Below are positions 1-52,751 of a stretch of DNA of 64,000 nucleotides, in pieces. The DNA comes from Escherichia coli (GTDB lineage: Bacteria; Pseudomonadota; Gammaproteobacteria; Enterobacterales; Enterobacteriaceae): the NCBI RefSeq assembly GCF_048403405.1, contig NZ_CP183129.1; one strand, written 5' to 3'. A program made the position numbers and the translations under genes. The notes beneath the pieces were generated by a model. That model was not told where the DNA came from, did not search any database, and saw only the letters and a program-made list of their open reading frames with translations. Position 1 is the first letter of the stretch, and each line of letters starts with the position of its first letter.

Positions 1-1134
1 ACAGGTGCATTTTCTCTTTTCTTATTAATTGTAAATAAAAAGCACAATTATAATAAAAATGTCATTATATTAATTCTTGGTTTACTTCTTTTGGGTGCAA
101 TGAACCTTATATGGTATGAATTTTATAAAACAGAAGATGTAGTATATAGAAATGCTTATCGAGGCTACCTTGAGTCTGGAAAACTATTAGTATTTAGCTC
201 GTTGACATTTTTATTACTAAGTAAAAATAAATTCAGGCAAAATGAAAAACTACATTTTATTTCAGCTATCTTAGTTCAAATAATCATGCTATGTAGAGCA
301 TATTATCAAGGGATATATTTGCATGCAGACCGCATTCCCCTCTCCGCCATGAATGGGAATATTGGTCAGATGGGGGCAGCGACTATTGCGGCTTATGTGA
401 TTACATTTACAACTTTATATTCTTCAATTGTATTCATAAAAATGCAATCGAAATATAAATGGTTTCTATTTTATGCTAACTTTGCTTTAAGCTTTGCAGC
501 AGTAATGATGACAGGAACGCGTGCGGCAATTTTCACATTCCCACTTATGATTATGGTCATATTATTTCTTCAGCATCGTGATCAAAAAGTGTTTTTATTT
601 AAAGGATTGAGTGGTGTTTTTATATTGCTACTTGCTTGTGGTTTGATATTTAATAAGGAAATTGATAGGCGAATTAATTCATTAAAAGCTGATGTTATTT
701 CATATGCTACAAAAAATAACAGTCAATCCTCGGTCGGAGCACGTTTTGCAATGGTTAATGCAGGAATTAAAGGAAGTCCTGATGGTTTTAATTGGCAATC
801 TCTTGAGCAGCGTGCTGAAAAGATAAAAGCATTAAGTGCAGAAAATAATATTTATAGTGGAGCTTTATTATTCCTTGATGTACATATGCATAACGAAATT
901 GTGGAATCTCTTTCCACGAAAGGAAAAATTGGTCTTCTTGTTCTTATTATGTTCTATGTTGCAATGATCTATTACTGTATACGAGAGAAAAAATATATAC
1001 TCTTGGTTTTCCCTGCTTCTATTATGTTATTTGGCATTAGTGATGTCATTACACATGCTAAACCAATACCGGCATCGTGGATTGTGTGCCTCTTCCTGTC
1101 TATATCGTTTTTGAGTAAAAATGAACCACAATAA
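1..1134 (+). CDS. waaL: O-antigen ligase WaaL, 5' end truncated by window edge
   Basis: Frame is open from base 1 with no stop before the listed TTG at 91; polytopic hydrophobic product; AT-rich; sits beside waaC where the ligase gene lies in waa clusters. Convergent with waaC, unlike K-12. Confidence 0.7.
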   Translation, partial: TGAFSLFLLIVNKKHNYNKNVIILILGLLLLGAMNLIWYEFYKTEDVVYRNAYRGYLESGKLLVFSSLTFLLLSKNKFRQNEKLHFISAILVQIIMLCRAYYQGIYLHADRIPLSAMNGNIGQMGAATIAAYVITFTTLYSSIVFIKMQSKYKWFLFYANFALSFAAVMMTGTRAAIFTFPLMIMVILFLQHRDQKVFLFKGLSGVFILLLACGLIFNKEIDRRINSLKADVISYATKNNSQSSVGARFAMVNAGIKGSPDGFNWQSLEQRAEKIKALSAENNIYSGALLFLDVHMHNEIVESLSTKGKIGLLVLIMFYVAMIYYCIREKKYILLVFPASIMLFGISDVITHAKPIPASWIVCLFLSISFLSKNEPQ

Positions 1135-19645: not shown

Positions 19646-22600
19646 TTACCACTGAATACCGGCACCGAGTGCGGCGGAGTATTCACCCTGGCTATTGGTA
19701 CTACCTTGTAATTTGTAGACCCAACGACCATTGGCGCTCACCATCGACACACCTAAAGCAACAGCCGATTCACCGTTGTAAGTACCGCCACCAATAGAGG
19801 CCATACTGGCACCTGGAGTGTAAGCCTGCGGCAGACCGGTCATTGCCATTGCAGAAGCGATACCACCGCTCAACTTGCTTTCGGTTTTGGACAGTTTGTT
19901 ATCCATCTCAACCATCCGCTGATCGGTGTATTGCTTCGTTTCCTGCACGCTTTGCTTCAACTGCGCATAGTTCACTGCGTCGTTGTTGTTCACGCCAGCG
20001 GAGACGTTGCTGATGCGAGTCGTACCGCCATTACCACCACCGAGAGTGATGTTGCTGTAGTCTATAGAACCATCAGCTTTGGTGTCGTAACGAACGCCGC
20101 CTGCCTCAGAAGACTTCAGCTGCGAAACGTTAACCGCATCGGTGGCATTAACACCTGCAGCAACGTTGGTGATACGACGCTGGTTGGTAGAAGAACCCAC
20201 AGAGATGGTGTTTTCTTCGTTGGCCACGGAACCGGTACCCAGCGCGACGCTGTTGTCAGCGGCAGCAATGGAACCAGAACCAATTGCAACACTGTCTTTA
20301 CCCTGCGCGTTGGCATCTACGCCATCGGTGTTGGTCTTGAAGTATTTGGTGCTACCGGTGGTTACGATATCGCCAATGCCGTTTTCGATATTGGTAACGC
20401 GAGTATCCAGATTCGTCACCTGATTGTTCAGGTTAGTAATGCTCTGGGTATTCTGGGAAACCTGCGCGTCCGTTACTTTCAACTGACCCACGTTAACCGC
20501 ATCGGTATCAGCCGAACCAGCCGCGACGTTGGTGATCTGACGTTGACCGTCTTCACTGCCGACAGAGAACTCACCCACAGAGTTCTGTGGTGCGTCCATG
20601 TTGTAGGCGGTGTAGCCAGTTTGAGCACCACGAGTCGTCTGTGAGCCATTACCCATAGCAATGCTGTTTGCATGGTTTGCACGCGCGTTGCTACCGATAG
20701 CAATGCCATTAAGTGCATTCGCGTCCACGTAGGCACCATAACCGATACCAATACCCGCATTACCATTAACGATAGTTTTCGCGCCCATTGCTAGCGAGTC
20801 TTCACCTACTGCCAGTGAATCTTCTTCCGTTGAGTTGGCGTGGAAGTATTTGGTCGGCGTGGTAGCGACTGCACCAATGGCATTTTGCAACTGGCGAACC
20901 GTAACGGCGTCATGGGCTTCGGAACCATCGGCTACGTTGATGATTTGACGATATTTACCGTCATCACCAATAGACAACGCACCAAGTAGTTCGCCATCCG
21001 TGGTGTCATAACCAATCACAACACCTTCTTCCGACACGCTGGTGTCACGAGAACCTTTAACTATTACACGGCTGGAAACGGAACTGCTACCCAGGGCAAT
21101 ACCGGTATCAACGGTGCTGCTGCTACCTTGACCAATGGCTACGCTGCTTTCGCCTGAGGCGACAGCGTTATAACCCACAGCCGTAGCGCCAATACCTGAA
21201 GCGCTGGCATCGTTGAACGCTAAGCCGTTGTCGTTGGTACGTACATAGTTAATGCCCGCACCGTTATCTTCGATGTAGGTTTCGCTGGTGTTACCGGCAA
21301 GCTGATTGATGATTTCGCTGTTCTGCTGGATCAGCATATTGGTGTTAAACAGCTGAGAACCGTTGATGGCGTCAGTGCTGCCTTCGCCAATGTTACCATC
21401 AGCAACGTTTGTGATGATGCTGGCCTTGCCATCATGGCTGGCGTTGTAGGCACCTGCGCCGTCATTGGCCGTTGCATCCCACAGCAGAGCGTTATCGTCG
21501 AGCGCATCCAGGGCGTCACCGACGTTGTTGTACTCGGCATTTGCAATGGTGTAACTCGGCGCAGTAATAGAACCATCAGCGTTGACTTCTGCGTCACCAC
21601 CCAGCGCATCAGCGATGTACTTGTTGGTGGTATACAGTTGTGAGCCGTTAATAGCATCGCTGCTGGTGGAGGAAATTGCACCGTCTGCGACGTTAGTAAT
21701 GACGCTGGCCGTTTTATCTACTCCGCGACCGGCGCTAAATGCACCATTACCATCATTGGCTGTGGCATCCCACAGCAGGGCGTCATCCAGCGTGGTATCG
21801 ATCGCTTCCAGCGCGTCACCGACGTTGCTGTAACTGCCACCAGCGATGGCATAAGTCGGTGCGGTGATTGTGCCGTCAGCATTGACTTCTGCGTTACCAC
21901 CCAGAGTATCGGCAATGTACTTGCTGGTGTCATAGAGCTGTGAGCCGTTAATAGCGTCGCTGCTGGTAGAGGAAATTGCACCGTCTGCAACATTAGTAAT
22001 GATGCTGGCCGTGTTATCTGTCCCGCGACCGGCGCTAAACGCACCGTCACCGCCCTTGGCGGTCGCATCCCAGAGTAGGGCATCACCCAGTGATGTGCTA
22101 AATGACGTGTTAATGGCAGCCAGAGCATCACCGACGTTATTGTAGTCAGTACCACCAATAGTGTAGGTTGGCCCGGTTAATACACCCGCATCGCTGATAT
22201 CAGCACCACCGCCAAGGTATGACGTAAATGAATCAGCTAAGCCATAAAGTTGTGAGCCATTAATGGCGTCAGTGCTGTCAGAGGATACAGTGCCTGCCAG
22301 TAAGTTGGTGATTTTGCTGGTGGCATCGGTACCGTGCGCGGCACTGAATGCCCCCGCAGTAGCGTTCCACAGCAGAGAGTCATCACCGAGACTGTCAACA
22401 GCGTCAGTCAGGTTGGTGATGTTAGTGGTGTTCGTGGCGATATTGGTGGTGTTGGCTGCCACGGCATCGTTAGTGGTTTTGAGCTGAGAGCCGTTAACCG
22501 CGTCAGTGCTGCCAGCCGTCAGGTCACCGTCTTTGACGTTAGTGATTTTGCTGGTGGCATCAGTACCGTGTGCGGCGCTGAATGCTCCCGCAGTAGCGTT

Positions 22601-24874: not shown

Positions 24875-24917
24875 TATTGATGCTCTCTATTCCTTGATAT
24901 AAGCGCAGAAGCTGCAT

Positions 24918-25601
24918 TTATTTTTTGTTTTTTCGCTGCCGAGTTTCAGCAGGTTGAACAGTGTCGAACTGGAGATTGGCCATATTGATGGACAACTTCA
25001 GATACTTCAGGTTATTAGGCGAAACGCCTTTTAATGTCAGATTAATGTCTTGCCATTGACCAGGCATTAATTGCAGAGTGGAATTCAGGGTGGTGTTGAA
25101 AAGTAATTGTTGCCACTTTGCCAGAGCTTTGGCATCGGCGGGTCTTTCATTGCCCCATGTCGCATGAAAGCCAATATTTGATACGGGAACGCTTAAAAGA
25201 TTAACCAGCGAAATACGAATAACACTGCCATTTTCCACCGCATCAATAGCCAGCACCCGGCCTGCCAAACCGACCGATCCGTTATTTATAATGAAGTATT
25301 GTGTTTGTGCTGGGTTAAATTCTGTAAAGACAAATTCGTCCTGCTTGTCTTTAACCGCTTTCACCACGCCAGCGAGCGTCTTGGTACTATTTATGACAGT
25401 AGTTTGTTGTTTTTCAAAATGTTCTATCTTGCGCTTATCGAGTTCCTGCTGTTTCTCAAGCGCCTCAATTTTGCTTTTTTGCAACTCTTGCTGTGTAACG
25501 AGTTCGTCGACCTTACTCGCTTTTTCAATATAGTCACACCCTGCCAATAAGCAGAGAGGCACTATTATTAACACGCTTAACAGTGTTTTCTTTAGGTTCA
25601 T
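24918..25601 (-). CDS. SadB-like lipoprotein, putative autotransporter biogenesis helper
   Basis: 227 aa; signal peptide with lipobox LLAGC; coiled-coil-prone N-terminal region; stop 43 bp upstream of the autotransporter start, same strand. Confidence 0.65.
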   Translation of the reverse strand: MNLKKTLLSVLIIVPLCLLAGCDYIEKASKVDELVTQQELQKSKIEALEKQQELDKRKIEHFEKQQTTVINSTKTLAGVVKAVKDKQDEFVFTEFNPAQTQYFIINNGSVGLAGRVLAIDAVENGSVIRISLVNLLSVPVSNIGFHATWGNERPADAKALAKWQQLLFNTTLNSTLQLMPGQWQDINLTLKGVSPNNLKYLKLSINMANLQFDTVQPAETRQRKNKK

Positions 25602-26161
25602 AGGATGAATTCCTTTTCATAATCCCGATACGTTGATAATTACAGTACAATCATTTTTTTTATGAATGATTAGAGTGGGGCATATCCGCCAAATAAATTT
25701 GTTAGAGAATTTTTGTATTAATGGGTTGTGCGAATATGTTTTTAAGTGTCAAACAATTTTAGTTTGTAGCCAATAAATAAATTGATCGCGCGGATTTTAA
25801 TGATCGGTGTCAATCAATGTCAAATGTTTCACCGGATAAAGGCCCGGGGCAGGGAAAGATAAATATTCAGTTGAGTGATGTTTTATTGCGAATTTTGCGA
25901 TGCTGATAGAAAAATTTAAATAATTAATTATGTTTCAAGCATTGATATGCGGCAATTCATTGTTAATATTGATACATCATTCTTTAATTTGTACCTGATT
26001 TTCAGAATTTAGCCTGCTCCGGGCGCTCAGAAGTGTAGGTGGAGTTAAATATATAATGTTAAGAACGTTATAAATATTCGATCTCTACAACAGGCTCCTG
26101 CATGTGCCAGCAGGAGCGAGTAAATCGTGAGTGGCTGTAATTACAGCGACGAGAAAGGAAC
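25602..26161. promoter_or_regulatory. AT-rich upstream region of the lipoprotein-autotransporter operon
   Basis: ~560 bp non-coding, strongly AT-rich with A/T tracts, immediately upstream of the lipoprotein gene; nucleoid-protein-bound regions look like this. Confidence 0.45.
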
Positions 26162-26524
26162 TTAAAACGCAGTCTTAGAGAACCCTGTCATCTCTTGTAG
26201 GCCCATTTCGCGGCCCAGCGCGGTCATTGGGTGCACAACGACCAGTCCGCGAACGCTCTTCTTCAGTTTGCCCATATCAGCTTGCTCTTTTTTAGTAATC
26301 GCGCGCTGGAACGGCATCTTCATCAGCTTCTGTGCTTCCTTACTGAGTTTCTGGCTGTGAACTTCGCGCAGGCGAGCAATTTCTGCTTCCAGAGTGGCTT
26401 TCTCTTTTTCCAGTTCAGCATATTTGTCTGCGGCTTCAACCAGCGACAGATCGGCCTGCTGGTGGCGGATGGCGTCCAGGCGATCGCTGAGACGTTTGAT
26501 TTCGTTTTTTTCGACTTCTTTCAT
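26162..26524 (-). CDS. yibL: YibL, small ribosome-associated protein
   Basis: 120 aa; charged coiled-coil N-terminal half; K-12 yibL position. Confidence 0.85.
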
Positions 26525-33267: not shown

Positions 33268-33789
33268 TTATTCATCGATGCATTTTATAGAATCATCAAT
33301 GGCTACAATAGTACTATTAACTCTCCAATTTATATTTTTATTATCATTGCAAATATTAACTGAATCTATATCAATGATTTTTTTATTTTTATCTTTTATT
33401 TTGTTTACAGTTTCAATGCAATCAGCGACAAGTTGGTGTGGATTTAGATTCTTCAGATATGGTCTTATGATCTTTCCCTTGCTTAATAAATAGCATGTAT
33501 AGGATTCGGAAAGTCCAGCATCTATTTTGTACATCATTATTCTAGATAAGGATGTGAGAAATGCCTTGTTATCATTAGCAGCCATATATGCCAGTCCGAG
33601 TTCAGCCTCTGCGGCTTTACATGAAAAATAGCTAAGTGAACACGCTTTTCGTCCCTCTTGGGTACTGGCTGATATTAGTGCCCATAATATTGCCTTGTCT
33701 GCCAAATCCAACTCTCTCTGAAATTGGTTTACAGTAACTGCATTCGCAGAAATAGAGAAGAAAAGCACAATTGTTAATAACCTTGTCAT
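33268..33789 (-). CDS. Exported Cys-containing protein of unknown function (candidate orphan immunity protein)
   Basis: 173 aa; signal peptide with likely cleavage after ANA; 7 Cys; very AT-rich gene between the Rhs module and yibH. Confidence 0.5.
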   Translation of the reverse strand: MTRLLTIVLFFSISANAVTVNQFQRELDLADKAILWALISASTQEGRKACSLSYFSCKAAEAELGLAYMAANDNKAFLTSLSRIMMYKIDAGLSESYTCYLLSKGKIIRPYLKNLNPHQLVADCIETVNKIKDKNKKIIDIDSVNICNDNKNINWRVNSTIVAIDDSIKCIDE

Positions 33790-34157
33790 ATTTCTAGTCC
33801 GTCACTGTTAATGTGCTATCTGGCTCTGAAAATATTAGCTCATTTAATTTTTGCATGTCATTAGATGAACCAGTTATACAACCCTCGGAACAGAATCGAG
33901 GTCCTAAAGATGGACCAAAAGCGTTTAAACAACTATGTGTTAAAAATCCATCACGATTATACGTTTCTGTATTTGCTGACGGTACTAAACGTATACCATT
34001 AGGTTTTCTATTGGTTGCTCCAGGACTGTTAAGCAAGCCTCGTCCGGTTTGCTTCATTGAGTTCTCCACTTTAGACTATTGGACTATCTTTCAACATGGC
34101 ATCGCCTTAGTATACCGCTGGTTTTCCGCTCATTGTTAATTTTCTCTTTCGTTCATT

Positions 34158-34568
34158 TCACTTAATTTTCAGTTTTTTCCAAAAGTCAATATTCCCTTCT
34201 AATAAAATTTTTTCTATGGAATCTTCATTAATTTTATTATTAGAGCATATGACATTATCTTGAACGCCATATGACACCACCCCGTTTTTATCAATATAAT
34301 ATCTGTCTTTACCATCAATAATATAAATCCTAACATTTTTATCATCAAAATGGTAACACTCATTACTAGACCTGTTCAGTAACATTAATAACTTCTCACG
34401 ATTTATCTGTAATAATTTTTGTGCACCATCTTTTATTGCAAAATTTTCAATTTTACTTTTAGTGACAGGGGAATATGTTTGGATGCGAAAAGGCATCCTA
34501 TAATGGAAAACATCAGCTATACAGCAAGATGAAAAAAATACGGAAATAAAATACAGACATACTTTCAT
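34158..34568 (-). CDS. Putative exported immunity protein cognate to the Rhs C-terminal toxin
   Basis: 136 aa; hydrophobic N-terminus MKVCLYFISVFFSSCC; starts 57 bp after the rhs stop, same strand, with GGAG RBS; AT-rich like the rhs tip. Confidence 0.55.
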   Translation of the reverse strand: MKVCLYFISVFFSSCCIADVFHYRMPFRIQTYSPVTKSKIENFAIKDGAQKLLQINREKLLMLLNRSSNECYHFDDKNVRIYIIDGKDRYYIDKNGVVSYGVQDNVICSNNKINEDSIEKILLEGNIDFWKKLKIK

Positions 34569-34625
34569 ACCATCTCCTAAACTGGTGATATATTAAAAAC
34601 ATACCCAAAAGCAATATAAAAATGT

Positions 34626-37600
34626 TTAATATTTCATTCTTGCTGGCAAGCCCAACTCTTTACGAAATGGGTTTTCATATTTATCAACATTAGCCATCGA
34701 GTCAGTTCCATCGTCTTTCATTCCCTTTGCATGCCCCATTTCATGCGCAAGAACCACACTCAACAGAGTGGGTTTCATGGCACATGCTTTGTTTTTTCCT
34801 TGATATACACATGAGCTATGGTCGTTATCAATATCAATGTAAAAACTATATTCAGTATCATCGTAGCATGTTTGGTTTATGCCTTTTCTTAATCCTCTAA
34901 ATATATATTCATGCTCTGATGACTCTAATTCTTCTGTTATTTTATGTCCAAACTTTGTTTCTGCTACAGCTTTATATGCTTCTTTTAAAGTTTTTTGTGT
35001 ACTTTCATCTCCCTGAAAAGACACTTTTAACCCTAATGGATCGAAACCAGATACCGGATTCAACGGATACTGATAAAAATTCCATCCCCCCTTAAGCCCA
35101 ATCGGATCCTGAGTGATATACCGCCCCTGCAGCGGGTCATAATAGCGGTGGCGGTTGTAATAGAGGCCGGACTCCTCATCATACTGCTGACCCGGCAGGC
35201 GGATGAGCTGCTGCAGCTGGTGCGGGTTCTCTTCATTCAGCAGGTTGCCCCATTCATCGTATTCTGCGCACCATTCTGTTGCCCCTTCCGTGCTGACAAG
35301 CGCCAGCGGCAGGCCGCGATGGTCGCAGTGGTACAGGTGGATTTTTCGCGCCGGCGTGTACACCGGGTCCATCTGGTTTTGTATCTGCTCCACCGTCAGG
35401 CCGCACGATGCCAGCCAGCGGCGGCTTTCCTCACTCACCCGGTCAGCCAGGATTTCACTTTCCAGCCGGTCGAGCATCTGCACCAGCACCGGCGGGAACA
35501 CCACACTGCCACCGTCTTCACCGCCGGACTGCTGAAGCGCATCCGCCAGGCTGCGGCGCTGCGTTTTCGCCAGCTCACCGGTGGCAGTTTCAACTCTGAT
35601 GAGTGGCGTGAAGCTCCCCGGCTGATAAACCGTCTGGATGCGGGTTCTGTCGTTCTGTATTGTGGTCAGCCGGTCGCCGTCCCAGCCGTACCAGGTCACT
35701 TCCGGTTTCCGTGACAGCGACATCCAGCCCGTCAGGTCCCGTTCACGCCGCCACACCCGTTTTGCCACCCTGCGGCCCAGCGGGTCGTAAAGATAGCGAC
35801 TTTCGACCAGCGGCTCTGCATATTGTGTCCGCGTGTAGTGCACCAGCCGGTGCCGGCTGTCGTAATGGTACCGGTGAGTCCGCTCATCATCCGTACGGAT
35901 AACCCCTTCCGGGATGAGGTCGGTTTTCTCCGTCAGCCTGCCGTGACGGTCATACCGGTAAAGATAGTGCGCGTCACGGGCGATACGGTTATCCGGCCAC
36001 ATGCTGAGGGTGCTGTCCGGGTGCAGCTCCGGGTCGGGCAGGCGGTTACCTGCCGGGTCCGTGGCATACGGGATGCGGATATCCAGATTCGCTGCGGTGG
36101 TGTGGACGCCGGTCAGCCTGCCGGTGTCGCTGTAGCTGTAACTCCGGGTCTGGCGCGGGCTGCTGATGCGGATGAGTTCGCCGTTGTCGTTCCAGGTGTA
36201 ATCGCGGTCATACTGCAGGCTGTTCAGGTGCTGGCTCTGTAACTGCCCGGCAGAGGTGTAAGCGGTGGTGAGTTCATAACGGCCGAAGCTGCGCAGCGTT
36301 TCCCGGTGCAGGCGGTCGCGGGTGAAATCCACCAGCGGTGTGTCGCCGAGTTTCATGCCTGACAGCCAGCCGCTGCCGTAGGTCAGCCATTCCACGGCGG
36401 GCAGGCTGTCCGGTATACAGCGGTTCGCCAGTCCCTGCGCGTTGTACGCATGTCTGGTTTCATGCTGCCAGAGCAGTGCTTCCGTCTGCGGGTGATGCAC
36501 CGTCTGGCGCTCACCGGTCAGGCGGCCTTTCTCATCATACCCGTAATGCACCGTCACCCGGTGGCCTTCGCTGAGATGGCTGATGCCTGTCAGCCAGCCG
36601 CGTTCGTCATACTGCCACTGCTCTGCAGGTTCACCCTTCACGGTGCGGTGAGTGAGGCGGTCTGCTTCGTCATAGTGCCAGTGGGTGACCAGCCCCTCAT
36701 CCTCGCTGCGGATAAGTTTACCGGTCAGGTCGTGGTGATAACGCTGTGTGCGGCCGTCAAAGCCGGTTTCCTGTATCAGCCGGTCAAGTACATCGTAACG
36801 GAAGGTGGTGTGGCTGCCGTTTTCACTGGTCAGGCGGATGACCCGCCCGGCAGCATCGTATTCCATACTGCGCGTCAGACCGCCCTGCGTGGTACGAACG
36901 GGCTTTCCCCACGCATCGTACTGTGTCCCGTTTCTGCTGCCGTCCGGGGCAATGACGGCGGTCAGGTCACCGGCGGCGTTGTATTCATACCGCGTTTCAT
37001 GGCCCTGCGTGTCTTTCACCGCAATTAACTGTCCACGGCTGTCGTATGCGCGGTACTGACTCAGCCCTTCCTCGCGGTGCACCGCCGTCACCTGACCAAA
37101 ACGGTCATGGTCATAACGGGTTACATAACCGGAACAGTCAGTGACGGTCAGCAACTGACCGTAACGGCTCCATGTCATGGTTTTCCGGCTGCCGGTGGCA
37201 TCTTCCGTTGCGCAGGGTAAGTCACTGTGTGGATTATCATAACGGTAGCGGGTGATATCGCCGTTGTGTGCGGTTTCCTGAATCAGACGGCCGGATTCAT
37301 CATATTTGCGGCGCAACTCCAGCCCGTCAGTCCCGGTGGCTGACGTTAACTGGTTGTGGTGGTTATAGTAAAATGCCGATGCCCTGCCATCCGGTGTGGT
37401 GATGCGCGTGATGAGTCCCGTCACCACATCCGGGCTGTACTCAGTCGTCCGGCCTGCGGCATCCGTCTGTGCCTTAAGCCCGCCCACCGCGTCAAACTGA
37501 CTCTGCGTGACGCTGCCGTCCGCGTGTTCCTTTTTCACCACCCGCTTCAGCCCGCCTTCGCCCTGCGTGTGCAGCACTTCACGGCGGTCCAGACTGTCGG

Positions 37601-38756
37601 TGATGGTGATGCGGTCTTTCTCATACTGATACGTGTAGCTTAAGCCTGCCGGGTTTAGCTGTTCTGTCACCCGCCCGTCGCTGTCGTAACGGTAACGGAT
37701 ATCCGGCCGGCCCGTGTGACGGTGCGCCACCATCCGGCCCCGGTATTTATCATCGTAAGTAAAGCTGCGCACCTGTGTATTGCTGCGGTCATACACCGCC
37801 GCCAGTTCGCCGCGTGGCGTCCAGCCATAGCGCACCAGCGGCGCGGCAGGTAAATTCTCCGGGTATTCCGGGTCGTGCGTCAGCCACACGGCAGACAGAC
37901 GGATGCCGTTGTCCCGGCCATATTCGGTGTAACCCGGCAGGGTATCAGGAAAAACGGACGGTTCCGCCCCGCCGGAAGAGGCCTGCTGCCGGGCTTCTTC
38001 TGCCCGCTGCGCCTGCGTGGTCAGTACCAGCCGGAAGTGACGCCCGGCACCATCCGTCACGCCGGTGATTTCGCCGCCAGCCTCACGGTGGAACGTCTGT
38101 GTGCGCCCGAAGCGGTCCACCAGCCCGGTCAGTACCCGGTACGGCGGCAGCGGCGCGGGCAGCACCTCATCCGCCTCCGGCACCTGCTCACACCAGCCGA
38201 GTACCCACCACGGCCCCTGCGGACTGTTTGTCGCCAGATAACGATGCGGACTCAGGCGGAGTTCTTCCGGCAGCGCCTGCCAGAGTGCGGCCAGCCGGTG
38301 ACCTTCATCCAGTTTCAGGACACCGCCACGCACCAGCCAGAGTGATTCGCTGCGGCTGTAACCGTCCTCACCGGGAAACAGGTGCTCAAAATACAGGCTC
38401 CTGCCGCCGTTATCACTGAGTATCAGTGTGTTATCGCGCAGCTGTAGGCGGATATCCGCAGGCATTTTCCAGCCGGGGCCGAGGCTCCCCACCGGCGCGG
38501 GCGTTTTTGTCCGGTAACTGCTGTAGGTGCGGGAGAGGATGAACGGCAGCGGGCCGGGCAGGGCAAGGTCGGTTTCGCCGGGAAGGACCTTCGCACCGAG
38601 CAGCGGATTGACCGGATGGCCGGACGTCACCCCGCCGGGGCACACCGAACAGGCCACGCCGGTGGGGGCACCAATACGTACCCCGGCAGAACCCTGAACA
38701 ATGCTACCGCCATACTGCGTCATGTCGCCCTGACGCGCCGCCGGTTTTCCGCTCAT
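34626..38756 (-). CDS. Rhs-family polymorphic toxin with PAAR-like N-terminus and HExxH metallopeptidase-like C-terminal tip
   Basis: 1376 aa; Gly-rich PAAR-like N-terminal region; many YD repeats; core ends ...DPIGL...DPLGL; 133-aa tail contains [20 protein letters not shown] (HEMGH coded at 34728-34745); GC-rich core switches to AT-rich coding at ~35030. Confidence 0.85.
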
Positions 38757-51339: not shown

Positions 51340-52116
<777 letters not shown>

Positions 52117-52220
52117 ATCAGCATACTTGTCCTTAGCCTTCTGCAGTGACAGCTGGTAGTACAGCGTGCTTCTGGCCAGCCCTGCAGCCTTTAACAGGTC
52201 AGACTGGCAGTGTCCGCACC

Positions 52221-52751
52221 TCAGGCTCCGGATGACTTTCGTTTTTTCTCCAGCTCCTGGCGCTTTTTTTCCAGGAGATGCTCCTGCATGGCTTTCAGAT
52301 ATGCATTTTCTGCGCGAAGATAACGCAGCTCATTCTTCATCTCTTCCGGCGTCATGTTTGCTTCGTTTTCATGGGTATCATCAGAACGGGTCATGCTTTT
52401 CTCCTTCCTGCGCCTGATAAAGGCCTCATTACCAGATTTGCGGTAGCCTTTTATCCAGTTTTTAACCGTGTTGTGGCTGGGAATGTTAAACCGGGCAGCT
52501 ACCCGGGGTAGAGACTCAGAATGCCCGAGAGCATAAAGAACCACGCAAAGTTTATCTTCAGGAGAATAGCTACGCCTGTGTCTGCAATCCAGTGCCCGAG
52601 GACCGTGAAGAAGAAAAAGATTAATCCAGTGTGAGAGGCTGGTGTGAGAAAGTTGAAAGAGTTTTGCCGTAGAAATGATGCCTGCATGACCGGCCAGGTA
52701 ATGATTTACAGCGGCAATTTTTACTTCAAATGAATGTTTCATAAACTGCAC
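52221..52751 (-). CDS. IS transposase OrfA, copy B
   Basis: Identical 176-aa product to copy A. Confidence 0.85.
   Translation of the reverse strand: MQFMKHSFEVKIAAVNHYLAGHAGIISTAKLFQLSHTSLSHWINLFLLHGPRALDCRHRRSYSPEDKLCVVLYALGHSESLPRVAARFNIPSHNTVKNWIKGYRKSGNEAFIRRRKEKSMTRSDDTHENEANMTPEEMKNELRYLRAENAYLKAMQEHLLEKKRQELEKKRKSSGA

Follow-up and report, generated by a model that had tools for sequence, protein, structure and literature searches.

The closest described system is the sadBA operon of Salmonella, which lies between mtl and lld and codes for a lipoprotein, SadB, and a giant trimeric autotransporter adhesin (TAA), SadA. SadB is an inner-membrane trimer which raises the surface display and protease resistance of SadA (Grin et al. 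2014, PMC3953254). A register-keeping model for SadB was put forward in the same paper because of the repeats present in SadA. Direct binding of the two proteins was left undemonstrated, as pull-down and phage display were inconclusive, and the native expression conditions of sadBA are given there as unknown. The operon, its location, the absence of both genes from K-12 as the result of a 5-kb deletion and the helper role of the lipoprotein are therefore already known, published in 2014. In E. coli the adhesins of this type are UpaG (CFT073 type) and EhaG (enterohaemorrhagic strains). Both mediate extracellular matrix binding, aggregation and biofilm formation, as stated in a passage of PMC7247748. 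The genome paper on enteroaggregative E. coli (EAEC) 042, from 2010, called the gene of that strain a UpaG orthologue (PMC2808357).

The window that we have analysed is a stretch of 64,000 nt from E. coli strain MS 69-1 (contig NZ_CP183129.1). It has a module of two genes, a lipoprotein and an adhesin, both on the minus strand and placed between yibL and lldP; the annotated gene order is mtlADR-yibT-yibL / lipoprotein-TAA / lldPRD. The features of the locus are collected in Table 1. The same yibL-lldP position is found in the UpaG, EhaG, ST131-type and 042 loci, that is in every locus fetched. The two long ORFs are real and not due to chance: they are intact across 5.9 kb and have very strong database matches. 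Their full length relative to the orthologues also rules out a pseudogene or decay in the window. Long plus strand ORFs within the adhesin gene (for example 22334–23512, 392 aa) mirror the repeat array in antisense, and their translations are repetitive and of low complexity. Searched over its whole length against Rfam (gathering threshold), the window gave 0 matches, with no known RNA element in the 560-bp leader region. We consider it highly probable that the region is an intact sadBA-type operon, whose E. coli equivalent is a SadB-like lipoprotein gene together with upaG or ehaG. The original prediction had spoken of a sadB-sadA / ehaG-upaG arrangement: the first part agrees with Grin et al. 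2014, the second is loosely worded, since the names ehaG and upaG denote different alleles of one adhesin gene and not a gene pair. The finding holds but is an ordinary one. Publications on the adhesins date from 2008–2012, and the allele class was noted in 2010 in the EAEC 042 genome paper.

Table 1. Features of the lipoprotein-adhesin locus and its neighbours, with positions in the window
Feature	Position	Strand	Basis
lldP	17693-19348	-	annotated neighbour
Intrinsic terminator-like hairpin, 13-bp stem then T run	19593-19622	-	24 bp past adhesin stop codon
Trimeric autotransporter adhesin gene, 1742 aa, positional orthologue of SadA/UpaG/EhaG	19646-24874	-	ORF, Pfam, PDB, BLASTP
C-terminal YadA-like membrane anchor, aa 1682-1742	19649-19831	-	PF03895, E=2.7e-19, whole model matched (1-60 of 60)
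Array of eight DALL-neck repeats, aa 530-1126+	21497-23287	-	Tandem Repeats Finder, motif census, pairwise identities
N-terminal YadA-like head repeats, about aa 90-380	23735-24607	-	multiple PF05658 matches, aa 90-377
ESPR extended signal peptide, aa 1-48	24731-24874	-	Pfam PF13018, E=1.9e-15, model positions 1-48 of 50
43-bp spacer with adhesin ribosome-binding region (AAGGAATAGAGAG...ATG)	24875-24917	-	sequence
SadB-family inner-membrane lipoprotein gene, 227 aa (membrane location predicted)	24918-25601	-	ORF and PDB 4C47 match
Lipoprotein signal peptide and lipobox, aa 1-22	25536-25601	-	sequence
AT-rich intergenic/regulatory region, yibL stop to lipoprotein start	25602-26161	-	35% GC against 51% window average
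Predicted sigma-70 promoter, TTGACA-18 nt-TAAAAT, 11/12 matches	25794-25823	-	consensus scan; 222 nt upstream of lipoprotein ATG
yibL	26162-26524	-	annotated neighbour

The lipoprotein starts with MNLKKTLLSVLIIVPLCLLAGC followed by DY and has the lipobox L-A-G-C, with the predicted lipidation site at Cys22. Residues G21-C22-D23 are invariant among 16 relatives. The Asp at +2 predicts retention in the inner membrane, the same ground on which this location was predicted by Grin et al. 2014 (PMC3953254). The alignment with Salmonella SadB (STM3690, PDB 4C47) is ungapped (query 23–227, chain 3–207, E=1.5e-70) and has 110/205 identical residues, 54%. The two proteins share the lipobox Cys, the Asp at +2, a Gln-rich N-terminal coiled coil (about aa 23–87 in MS 69-1) and a C-terminal beta-sandwich (about aa 90–212), and the KxxxLEKQQ-type pattern of the SadB coiled coil is present in the predicted long helix of the MS 69-1 protein, at residues about 23–87. 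The sadB gene is directly upstream of the giant TAA in its mtl-lld position, with a spacer of 44 bp instead of 43 bp; 46% of the residues of the two proteins differ. An AlphaFold2 model of the monomer, of moderate confidence (mean pLDDT 67.8), has a helix at 4–87 and then strands across 102–206. When this model was used with Foldseek, three chains of 4C47 came on top (E=1e-19 to 3e-17), and YajI of E. coli (PDB 2JWY) had rank 6 with probability 1.00. YajI is a paralogue of SadB, also a lipoprotein with the same beta-sandwich fold, but with about 14% identity, and its gene lies elsewhere, near yajC-secDF, without linkage to an autotransporter (PMC3953254). Pfam-A and NCBIfam scans of the MS 69-1 lipoprotein gave no significant family, so that its identity was taken from the match to a PDB sequence, from the fold and from published work; the precomputed Pfam columns of its relatives are nearly all empty. 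In RefSeq the identical protein (WP_001049686.1) is a 'DUF3251 domain-containing protein', while relatives appear as 'SadB/YajI family lipoprotein'. By sequence and by model it is a clear SadB orthologue, with the domain plan of SadB: an N-terminal coiled-coil helix and a C-terminal MATH-like beta-sandwich.

In the adhesin, Pfam finds ESPR, YadA_head, YadA_stalk and YadA_anchor, with many matches of PF05658 and PF05662. To judge from these domains it has the hallmarks of a TAA (type Vc): an ESPR signal, a passenger with head, neck and coiled-coil segments, and a bona fide anchor. YadA-like anchors have four beta-strands per chain and an aromatic last residue; here the C-terminal residues are ...GAGIQW, with Trp as the last one. 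The anchor region (aa 1655–1742) matches the structures of the Hia anchor, 3EMO (E=4e-22) and 2GR7 (E=3e-16). Solved TAA fragments from the PDB match the protein along its whole length. Those of SadA include 2YO0 (E=2.6e-135, 87% identity over aa 1325–1590) and 2YO3 (78%). A census of motifs gives 14 necks and 8 DALL motifs. The DALL-neck array has four or five short units of 69–78 aa, mutually 88–99% identical, and longer units of about 100 aa which are 55–79% identical, as measured in DALL-anchored pairwise alignments; Tandem Repeats Finder gives periods of 234, 207 and 300 bp in the gene. The RefSeq entry is WP_114281918.1, 'YadA-like family protein'. We also considered Ata, Vomp, EmaA, BimA and YadA as possible identities, but their NCBIfam matches are sub-threshold, far below the curated cut-offs, and correspond to a generic similarity of repeats. 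By analogy with its relatives the protein would be a surface homotrimer with adhesive activity.

The following features had been read correctly from the letters in the original prediction: a 227-aa lipoprotein with lipobox LLAGC and a coiled-coil N-terminus and, 43 bp later, a 1742-aa YadA-like autotransporter with extended signal peptide and an anchor ending in W. It had also set beforehand a similarity to TAA anchors and SadB-family lipoproteins as the test, and this similarity is found in PF03895, 3EMO and 2GR7 for the adhesin and in 4C47 for the lipoprotein.

Among the E. coli relatives, UpaG (RefSeq-named upaG, WP_001033292.1, 1778 aa) gives a single BLASTP alignment, aa 1–1742 against 1–1778, with 75.8% identity. 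It has the same locus, ESPR signal, 14 neck motifs and 43-bp spacer, and its C-terminal 350 aa are at least 97% identical (aa 1401–1742 of the MS 69-1 adhesin); the last ~40 aa of the anchor are 100% identical in UpaG, EhaG and MS 69-1. The partner lipoprotein of UpaG is 87% identical. The differences are found in the head, the most divergent part of the adhesin, where aa 101–300 are only 46–47% identical, and in the length and number of DALL motifs: 1778 aa with 9 motifs against 1742 aa with 8. The UpaG-type locus also has a REP-like element downstream of the gene which is absent from the window, and RefSeq names UpaG as such, but not the MS 69-1 protein. The low identity of the head and the RefSeq name 'YadA-like family protein' rule out a UpaG allele sensu stricto.

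EhaG (RefSeq-named ehaG, WP_001033225.1, 1616 aa) is likewise an orthologue by position; ESPR signal and anchor are the same, and its C-terminal 450 aa are at least 94% identical. It is more distant in other respects: overall identity is 65–73%, it has 12 necks instead of 14 and 4 DALL motifs instead of 8, its partner lipoprotein is only 65% identical and its upstream regulatory region is unrelated, except for a promoter patch. Ec042-3912 of EAEC 042 (WP_001033306.1, 1743 aa) is of the same allele class as the MS 69-1 protein and one residue longer: the DNA of its head (1026 bp) is 100% identical to that of MS 69-1 and the organisation of the locus is alike. These alignments place the MS 69-1 adhesin as an orthologue in a distinct allele class, the 042 type. 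Counted at a nucleotide identity of 99% or more, the head allele occurs in 387 complete genomes, EAEC 042 among them, and the whole adhesin gene is identical in 6 complete genomes. A strain-specific composition of repeats, as it had been proposed, is thus overstated: repeat counts differ between allele classes.

In the region upstream of the lipoprotein gene, identity with the UpaG-type and EcFL1 loci is 93–99% and with the ST131-type locus about 70%, and hardly any relationship to the EhaG-type locus is seen. The predicted promoter belongs to a conserved island which all four aligned loci share, also the ST131-type one with its overall identity of about 70%; the EhaG-type locus shares only this patch (TTGACA...TAGAAT), at equal distance from the ATG. 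The 43-bp spacer is nearly identical in the window and in the UpaG-type, ST131-type and EhaG-type loci, while the flanking coding sequences go down to 65% amino acid identity. In a scan of the minus strand, the lipoprotein gene and the spacer had no terminator-like or promoter-like site, and the hairpin beyond the adhesin gene is the only terminator-like site on this strand from yibL to lldP. The check for signs against co-transcription thus turned up none: there is one promoter upstream and one terminator downstream. A promoter upstream, a conserved spacer and a lone same-strand terminator together fit a single bicistronic operon. The upaG gene is repressed by H-NS, according to a passage of PMC5012682 that cites Totsika 2012, and H-NS probably silences the MS 69-1 locus as well.

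We can now outline how the module may work. The identities of the genes, their architecture, synteny, the conservation of signals and their distribution come directly from our comparisons; the use of the promoter, co-transcription and H-NS control are suggested by sequence signals and by the literature on other alleles. One transcript would start at the sigma-70 promoter, ~220 nt upstream of the lipoprotein gene in the AT-rich region, read through the spacer and end at the hairpin just past the adhesin gene. The lipoprotein would be exported, lipidated on Cys22, kept in the inner membrane by the Asp at +2 and trimerised through its N-terminal coiled coil, as in Salmonella SadB. Its three beta-sandwich domains may then keep the three nascent, highly repetitive adhesin chains joined and in register close to the Sec exit. 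From what is known of the family, the adhesin would be exported through its extended signal peptide, BAM would assemble its C-terminal segments into a 12-stranded barrel, and the passenger would be extruded as a trimeric fibre with the head, 14 necks, DALL repeats and coiled coils. The fibre would mediate matrix binding, aggregation and biofilm formation, as in other members of the family. The helper step is taken from Salmonella SadB, a 54% identical protein and the only one for which it was demonstrated by experiment. Plasmid-borne UpaG fragments were assembled in E. coli in work that makes no mention of the lipoprotein, so that the helper is probably not essential.

The position between the mtl and lld operons is very probably the ancestral chromosomal site of the module. 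One could also think of an adhesin islet that came in by horizontal transfer and entered the yibL-lldP gap of a K-12-like ancestor. In the original prediction K-12 goes directly from yibL to lldP, and this is the case: both genes are missing and a 371-bp intergenic region is left; sampled K-12-like genomes have the same organisation. The low GC content of the lipoprotein gene (42%) and of the upstream region, and allele classes which are strongly different between nearly identical flanks, would also suit an insertion. Nevertheless it is very unlikely. Among 5426 complete E. coli genomes the two genes are present in 4149 and 4158 (about 76%), always in the chromosome, and homologues carry names from E. 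fergusonii, E. marmotae, E. ruysiae, Shigella, Salmonella and Pseudocitrobacter. The borders have no integrase, IS element or tRNA. The K-12 junction retains the terminator hairpin of the adhesin and a REP-like element, which in the UpaG-type and ST131-type loci sits between the terminator and the adhesin stop. These remnants, the same position in Salmonella and the published deletion led us to drop the insertion: the difference is a deletion in K-12. Exchange of alleles by recombination within the locus is likely, yet it is not an insertion.

If the ancestral operon is accepted, its two genes could still be less closely associated than the sadBA model proposes. The lipoprotein might be a general envelope protein like YajI, which merely adjoins the adhesin gene: YajI is unlinked to any autotransporter, a direct contact of SadB and SadA was not demonstrated, and UpaG derivatives assemble from plasmids in the study which is silent on the lipoprotein. 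We find this very unlikely, since the 43/44-bp linkage is kept from Salmonella to all E. coli allele classes, co-expression of SadB improved the display of SadA and a global survey found SadB homologues only beside TAAs in Enterobacterales (bioRxiv 10.64898/2026.01.22.700529). The near-equal genome counts fit a joint presence or loss of both genes, as has occurred in K-12. A dedicated helper and its adhesin could, on the other hand, be intact but cryptic in MS 69-1, held off by H-NS under essentially all conditions and with little phenotype. The AT-rich upstream region, the repression reported for upaG and the lack of known conditions for native sadBA expression go in this direction. The locus is also dispensable: it is lost in about 23% of complete genomes, and one ST131 strain has a nonsense mutation which removes the last strand of the anchor. 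We regard permanent silence as rather improbable, although with some weight. The ORFs have remained intact despite a repeat array prone to recombination, and adhesin copies at least 98% identical differ in length by small in-frame changes, all multiples of 3, a pattern in favour of purifying selection to keep the frame. The different alleles also share a conserved promoter and spacer, and in a passage of PMC7247748 SadA is reported to be expressed in vivo during infection and UpaG to elicit antibodies. Silencing in the laboratory is compatible with a functional sadBA-type operon and does not replace it.

The lipoproteins of the different loci diverge mostly in the signal peptide and coiled coil (44–94% identity to the MS 69-1 protein, against 78–97% for the beta domain). 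The MS 69-1 protein is a mosaic, with a UpaG-like coiled coil (94% identity) and an ST131-like beta domain (97%), a pattern that could come from recombination which reshuffles helper and adhesin modules. The 042 class, with an uncharacterised head and this mosaic lipoprotein, may differ in function from the two E. coli alleles that have been characterised, a suggestion we make only tentatively. The head could confer a different receptor or tissue specificity, because it is only about 46% identical to that of UpaG. If the class is distinct, one would expect the well-conserved beta domain of the helper to recognise the C-terminal part of the adhesin, which is invariant, and not its variable head. 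UpaG/EhaG-type adhesins count as virulence or colonisation factors and have been considered as vaccine antigens. A highly allele-specific head next to an almost invariant C-terminal stalk and anchor bears on gene typing and on the choice of antigen. Automated calls of virulence genes may miss the allele class of MS 69-1, because RefSeq leaves both its adhesin and its lipoprotein unnamed.

The stretch between yibL and lldP holds the two-gene module of the original prediction, with exactly its coordinates, strands and 43-bp spacing in the ORF list. The observation is confirmed and its interpretation supported, with two modest corrections: they concern the origin of the difference from K-12 and the level at which the adhesin varies. 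The system is already known at the family, operon, locus and even allele-class level. Annotation labels were taken from E. coli MS 69-1 (NZ_CP146675.1, 105288–169287), which is 100% identical to the window; there the adhesin is a 'YadA-like family protein' (WP_114281918.1) and the lipoprotein a 'DUF3251 domain-containing protein' (WP_001049686.1).

Features of the adhesin operon and its flanks (nt, window positions; aa, adhesin residues)
Feature	Position	Strand	Basis
lldP, flanking gene	17693–19348	-	annotation
Terminator-like hairpin, 24 bp past adhesin stop	19622–19593	-	consensus scan
Adhesin ORF, 1742 aa	19646–24874	-	ORF list
Lipoprotein ORF, 227 aa	24918–25601	-	ORF list
Promoter-like site TTGACA-18-TAAAAT, 11/12 matches	25823–25794	-	consensus scan
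yibL, flanking gene	26162–26524	-	annotation
ESPR extended signal peptide	aa 1–48		Pfam, E=1.9e-15
YadA_head repeats, long run	aa ~90–380		Pfam
Additional head patches	near aa 1225, 1385, 1523		Pfam
YadA_stalk, sixteen matches	adhesin		Pfam
YadA_anchor, complete	aa 1682–1742		Pfam, E=2.7e-19

The lipobox and coiled-coil N-terminus predicted for the lipoprotein are both present. It starts with a classical lipoprotein signal, MNLKKTLLSVLIIVPLCLLAG-C22-D23, with Asp at +2, and its AlphaFold2 model (mean pLDDT 67.8, which is moderate) has a single long helix, residues 4–87, followed by a beta-rich domain, 102–206. Similarity to SadB is clear: 4C47 is the sole match in a search of all PDB sequences (E=1.5e-70), and the alignment runs without gaps from residue 23 to the end of the protein, with identity at 110 of 205 positions (54%). 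Foldseek, which describes 4C47 as the Salmonella enterica trimeric lipoprotein SadB, gives three chains of this entry as the top PDB matches of the model; the paralogue YajI (2JWY) has rank 6. When the lipoprotein is aligned with 15 diverse relatives, Gly21-Cys22-Asp23 proves invariant and conservation is strongest in the C-terminal domain; identity of relatives to the window lipoprotein is 44–94% in the coiled coil and 78–97% in the beta domain. Pfam-A and NCBIfam scans found no significant family for the lipoprotein, and precomputed Pfam labels are almost all empty across hundreds of relatives. We read the missing matches as a library gap, because RefSeq disagrees with them and names the protein and its relatives 'DUF3251 domain-containing' or 'SadB/YajI family lipoprotein'. 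Named relatives occur in E. coli, E. fergusonii, E. marmotae, E. ruysiae, Shigella, Salmonella and Pseudocitrobacter, in agreement with the published restriction to Enterobacterales (bioRxiv 10.64898/2026.01.22.700529).

The adhesin is indeed a giant YadA-like autotransporter: Pfam finds the extended signal peptide and the C-terminal anchor, and Hia anchors match its last 88 residues in a PDB search. Domain annotation of the passenger gives heads and stalks, with 14 neck and 8 DALL motifs. Two GCN4-fused SadA fragments also match, 2YO0 (E=2.6e-135, 87% identity, aa 1325–1590) and 2YO3 (78% identity, aa 1465–1668). Tandem Repeats Finder detects periods of 234, 207 and 300 bp within 21498–23315. 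Four repeat units at aa 530–830 have mutual identities of 88–99%; the longer units after them are 49–79% identical. Proteins of this family are exported by Sec with an ESPR signal, their 12-stranded barrel is assembled by a BAM-dependent route and the passenger is extruded as a trimeric fibre.

According to Grin et al. (PMC3953254), SadB carries a lipid and is recovered in the inner-membrane fraction. Its crystal trimer combines a nine-heptad Gln-rich coiled coil with three MATH-like beta-sandwich domains, and it raises the surface display and protease resistance of SadA. These authors proposed that SadB keeps three nascent chains in register, because the SadA stalk holds highly similar consecutive repeats (PMC3953254). 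The window adhesin shares this property in a stronger form than SadA, so the mechanism transfers naturally: the window lipoprotein would hold three nascent adhesin chains in register. We infer this helper role by analogy with the proposal for Salmonella SadB (PMC3953254). Binding to ECM proteins is reported for UpaG and EhaG, as is a role in aggregation and biofilm formation (PMC7247748).

The one strong promoter-like site precedes the start codon of the lipoprotein gene by 222 nt; between it and the hairpin the consensus scan found nothing on the minus strand except a weak 9/12 match deep in the adhesin gene. In a four-locus alignment the ST131-type upstream region is about 70% identical overall, yet its promoter hexamers and ribosome-binding region are nearly identical. 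The EhaG-type region is unrelated except for one patch, which is again the promoter-like site (TTGACA...TAGAAT) and is equally far from the ATG. All four allele classes have nearly the same 43-bp spacer. Such signals argue for one bicistronic transcript rather than demonstrate it. The upstream region has 35% GC against 51% in the window, which fits the H-NS repression reported for upaG (PMC5012682). Scanned with Rfam at gathering thresholds, the whole 64-kb window gave no RNA family match.

The sadB-sadA and upaG/ehaG arrangement is recovered. Gene order is common to all five loci fetched: upaG-named (LTC101, 1778 aa), ehaG-named (08_3323, 1616 aa), the close relative Ec-FL1-1X, one ST131-type and EAEC 042; SadA fragments and SadB are matched as described. 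The adhesin aligns with UpaG in a single collinear match at 75.8% identity overall: 46–47% in the head (aa 101–300), at least 97% past aa 1400 and 100% in the anchor. Identity to EhaG is 65% (local) to 73% (global). The partner lipoproteins share 87% of residues with that of the window in the UpaG type, 85% in the ST131 type and 65% in the EhaG type. Repeat content varies between allele classes: neck and DALL motifs number 14 and 9 in UpaG, 12 and 4 in EhaG, and 10 and 5 in the ST131 type, while Ec-FL1-1X equals the window allele.

Of 5426 complete E. coli genomes, 4149 carry the lipoprotein gene and 4158 the adhesin gene, on the chromosome in every case. The repeat composition had been taken as strain-specific, which does not hold. 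Six genomes have an effectively identical adhesin gene (100.0% identity, full length); the best 60 matches are all at least 98.1% identical, with spans of 5229–5256 bp and every length difference a multiple of 3. DNA for the head domain recurs with at least 99% identity in 387 genomes, among them EAEC 042, whose gene Ec042-3912 the 042 genome paper had already called the UpaG orthologue (PMC2808357). Judged from these sequences, repeat and head composition characterises allele classes rather than single strains.

The window lipoprotein has a coiled coil 94% identical to the UpaG type and 70% to the ST131 type; its beta domain and tail are 97–100% identical to the ST131 type, and 85% and 67% to the UpaG type. 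This mosaic appearance suggests recombination within the gene, with a breakpoint around residue 90. In the EhaG-type locus of 08_3323 (L004:6692–6763) the lipoprotein is annotated with 242 aa, not 227. Its sequence before the stop is unlike the other three loci and includes a longer A run (A7), so that the ORF shifts frame through the 43-bp spacer and its end overlaps the ehaG ATG; another EhaG-type relative, P0120, has 227 aa and ends normally. The ST131-type orthologue of E. coli O25:H4 18044 (NZ_AP022326.1, L006:933–1010) carries a nonsense mutation, CAG to TAG, that stops the protein 14 codons early and takes away its final anchor strand; its RefSeq name is just 'ESPR-type extended signal peptide-containing protein'. 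Since similar loci (H16, H17) keep the YadA-like label, we take the change as a probable inactivation at strain level.

K-12 has lldP directly after yibL, in line with the original prediction. Such a difference could be due to an insertion in the window, a reading we reject on the evidence of the junction. The K-12 sequence follows that of the window as far as 19624, terminator hairpin included, then has 95 bp absent from the window and resumes at yibL (26161). Most of these 95 bp match a REP-like element which in UpaG-type and ST131-type loci comes after the adhesin stop codon and before the terminator. Because hairpin and REP-like element persist at its junction, K-12 carries the scar of a deletion that removed the operon from this locus, in agreement with the 5-kb deletion described by Grin et al. 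(PMC3953254). The window itself is without the REP-like element (~95–120 bp) at 19593–19645 (…GCCGGATGCGGCGTGAAC…; compare the counterparts at L003:4704–4827 and L001:3249–3343).

Elsewhere in the window, between yibH and yibF, RefSeq annotates an RHS element core protein (~1376 aa) and, after it, one hypothetical protein and an immunity protein of the Imm57 family (33268–38756, minus strand): a polymorphic-toxin and immunity cassette at an rhsA-type locus. Two inverted IS3-family IS1397 copies with identical transposase WP_115441016.1 (46153–47501, plus; 51393–52741, minus) bracket yiaT-yiaU-yiaV-yiaW and a small hypothetical gene, a layout which resembles a composite transposon.
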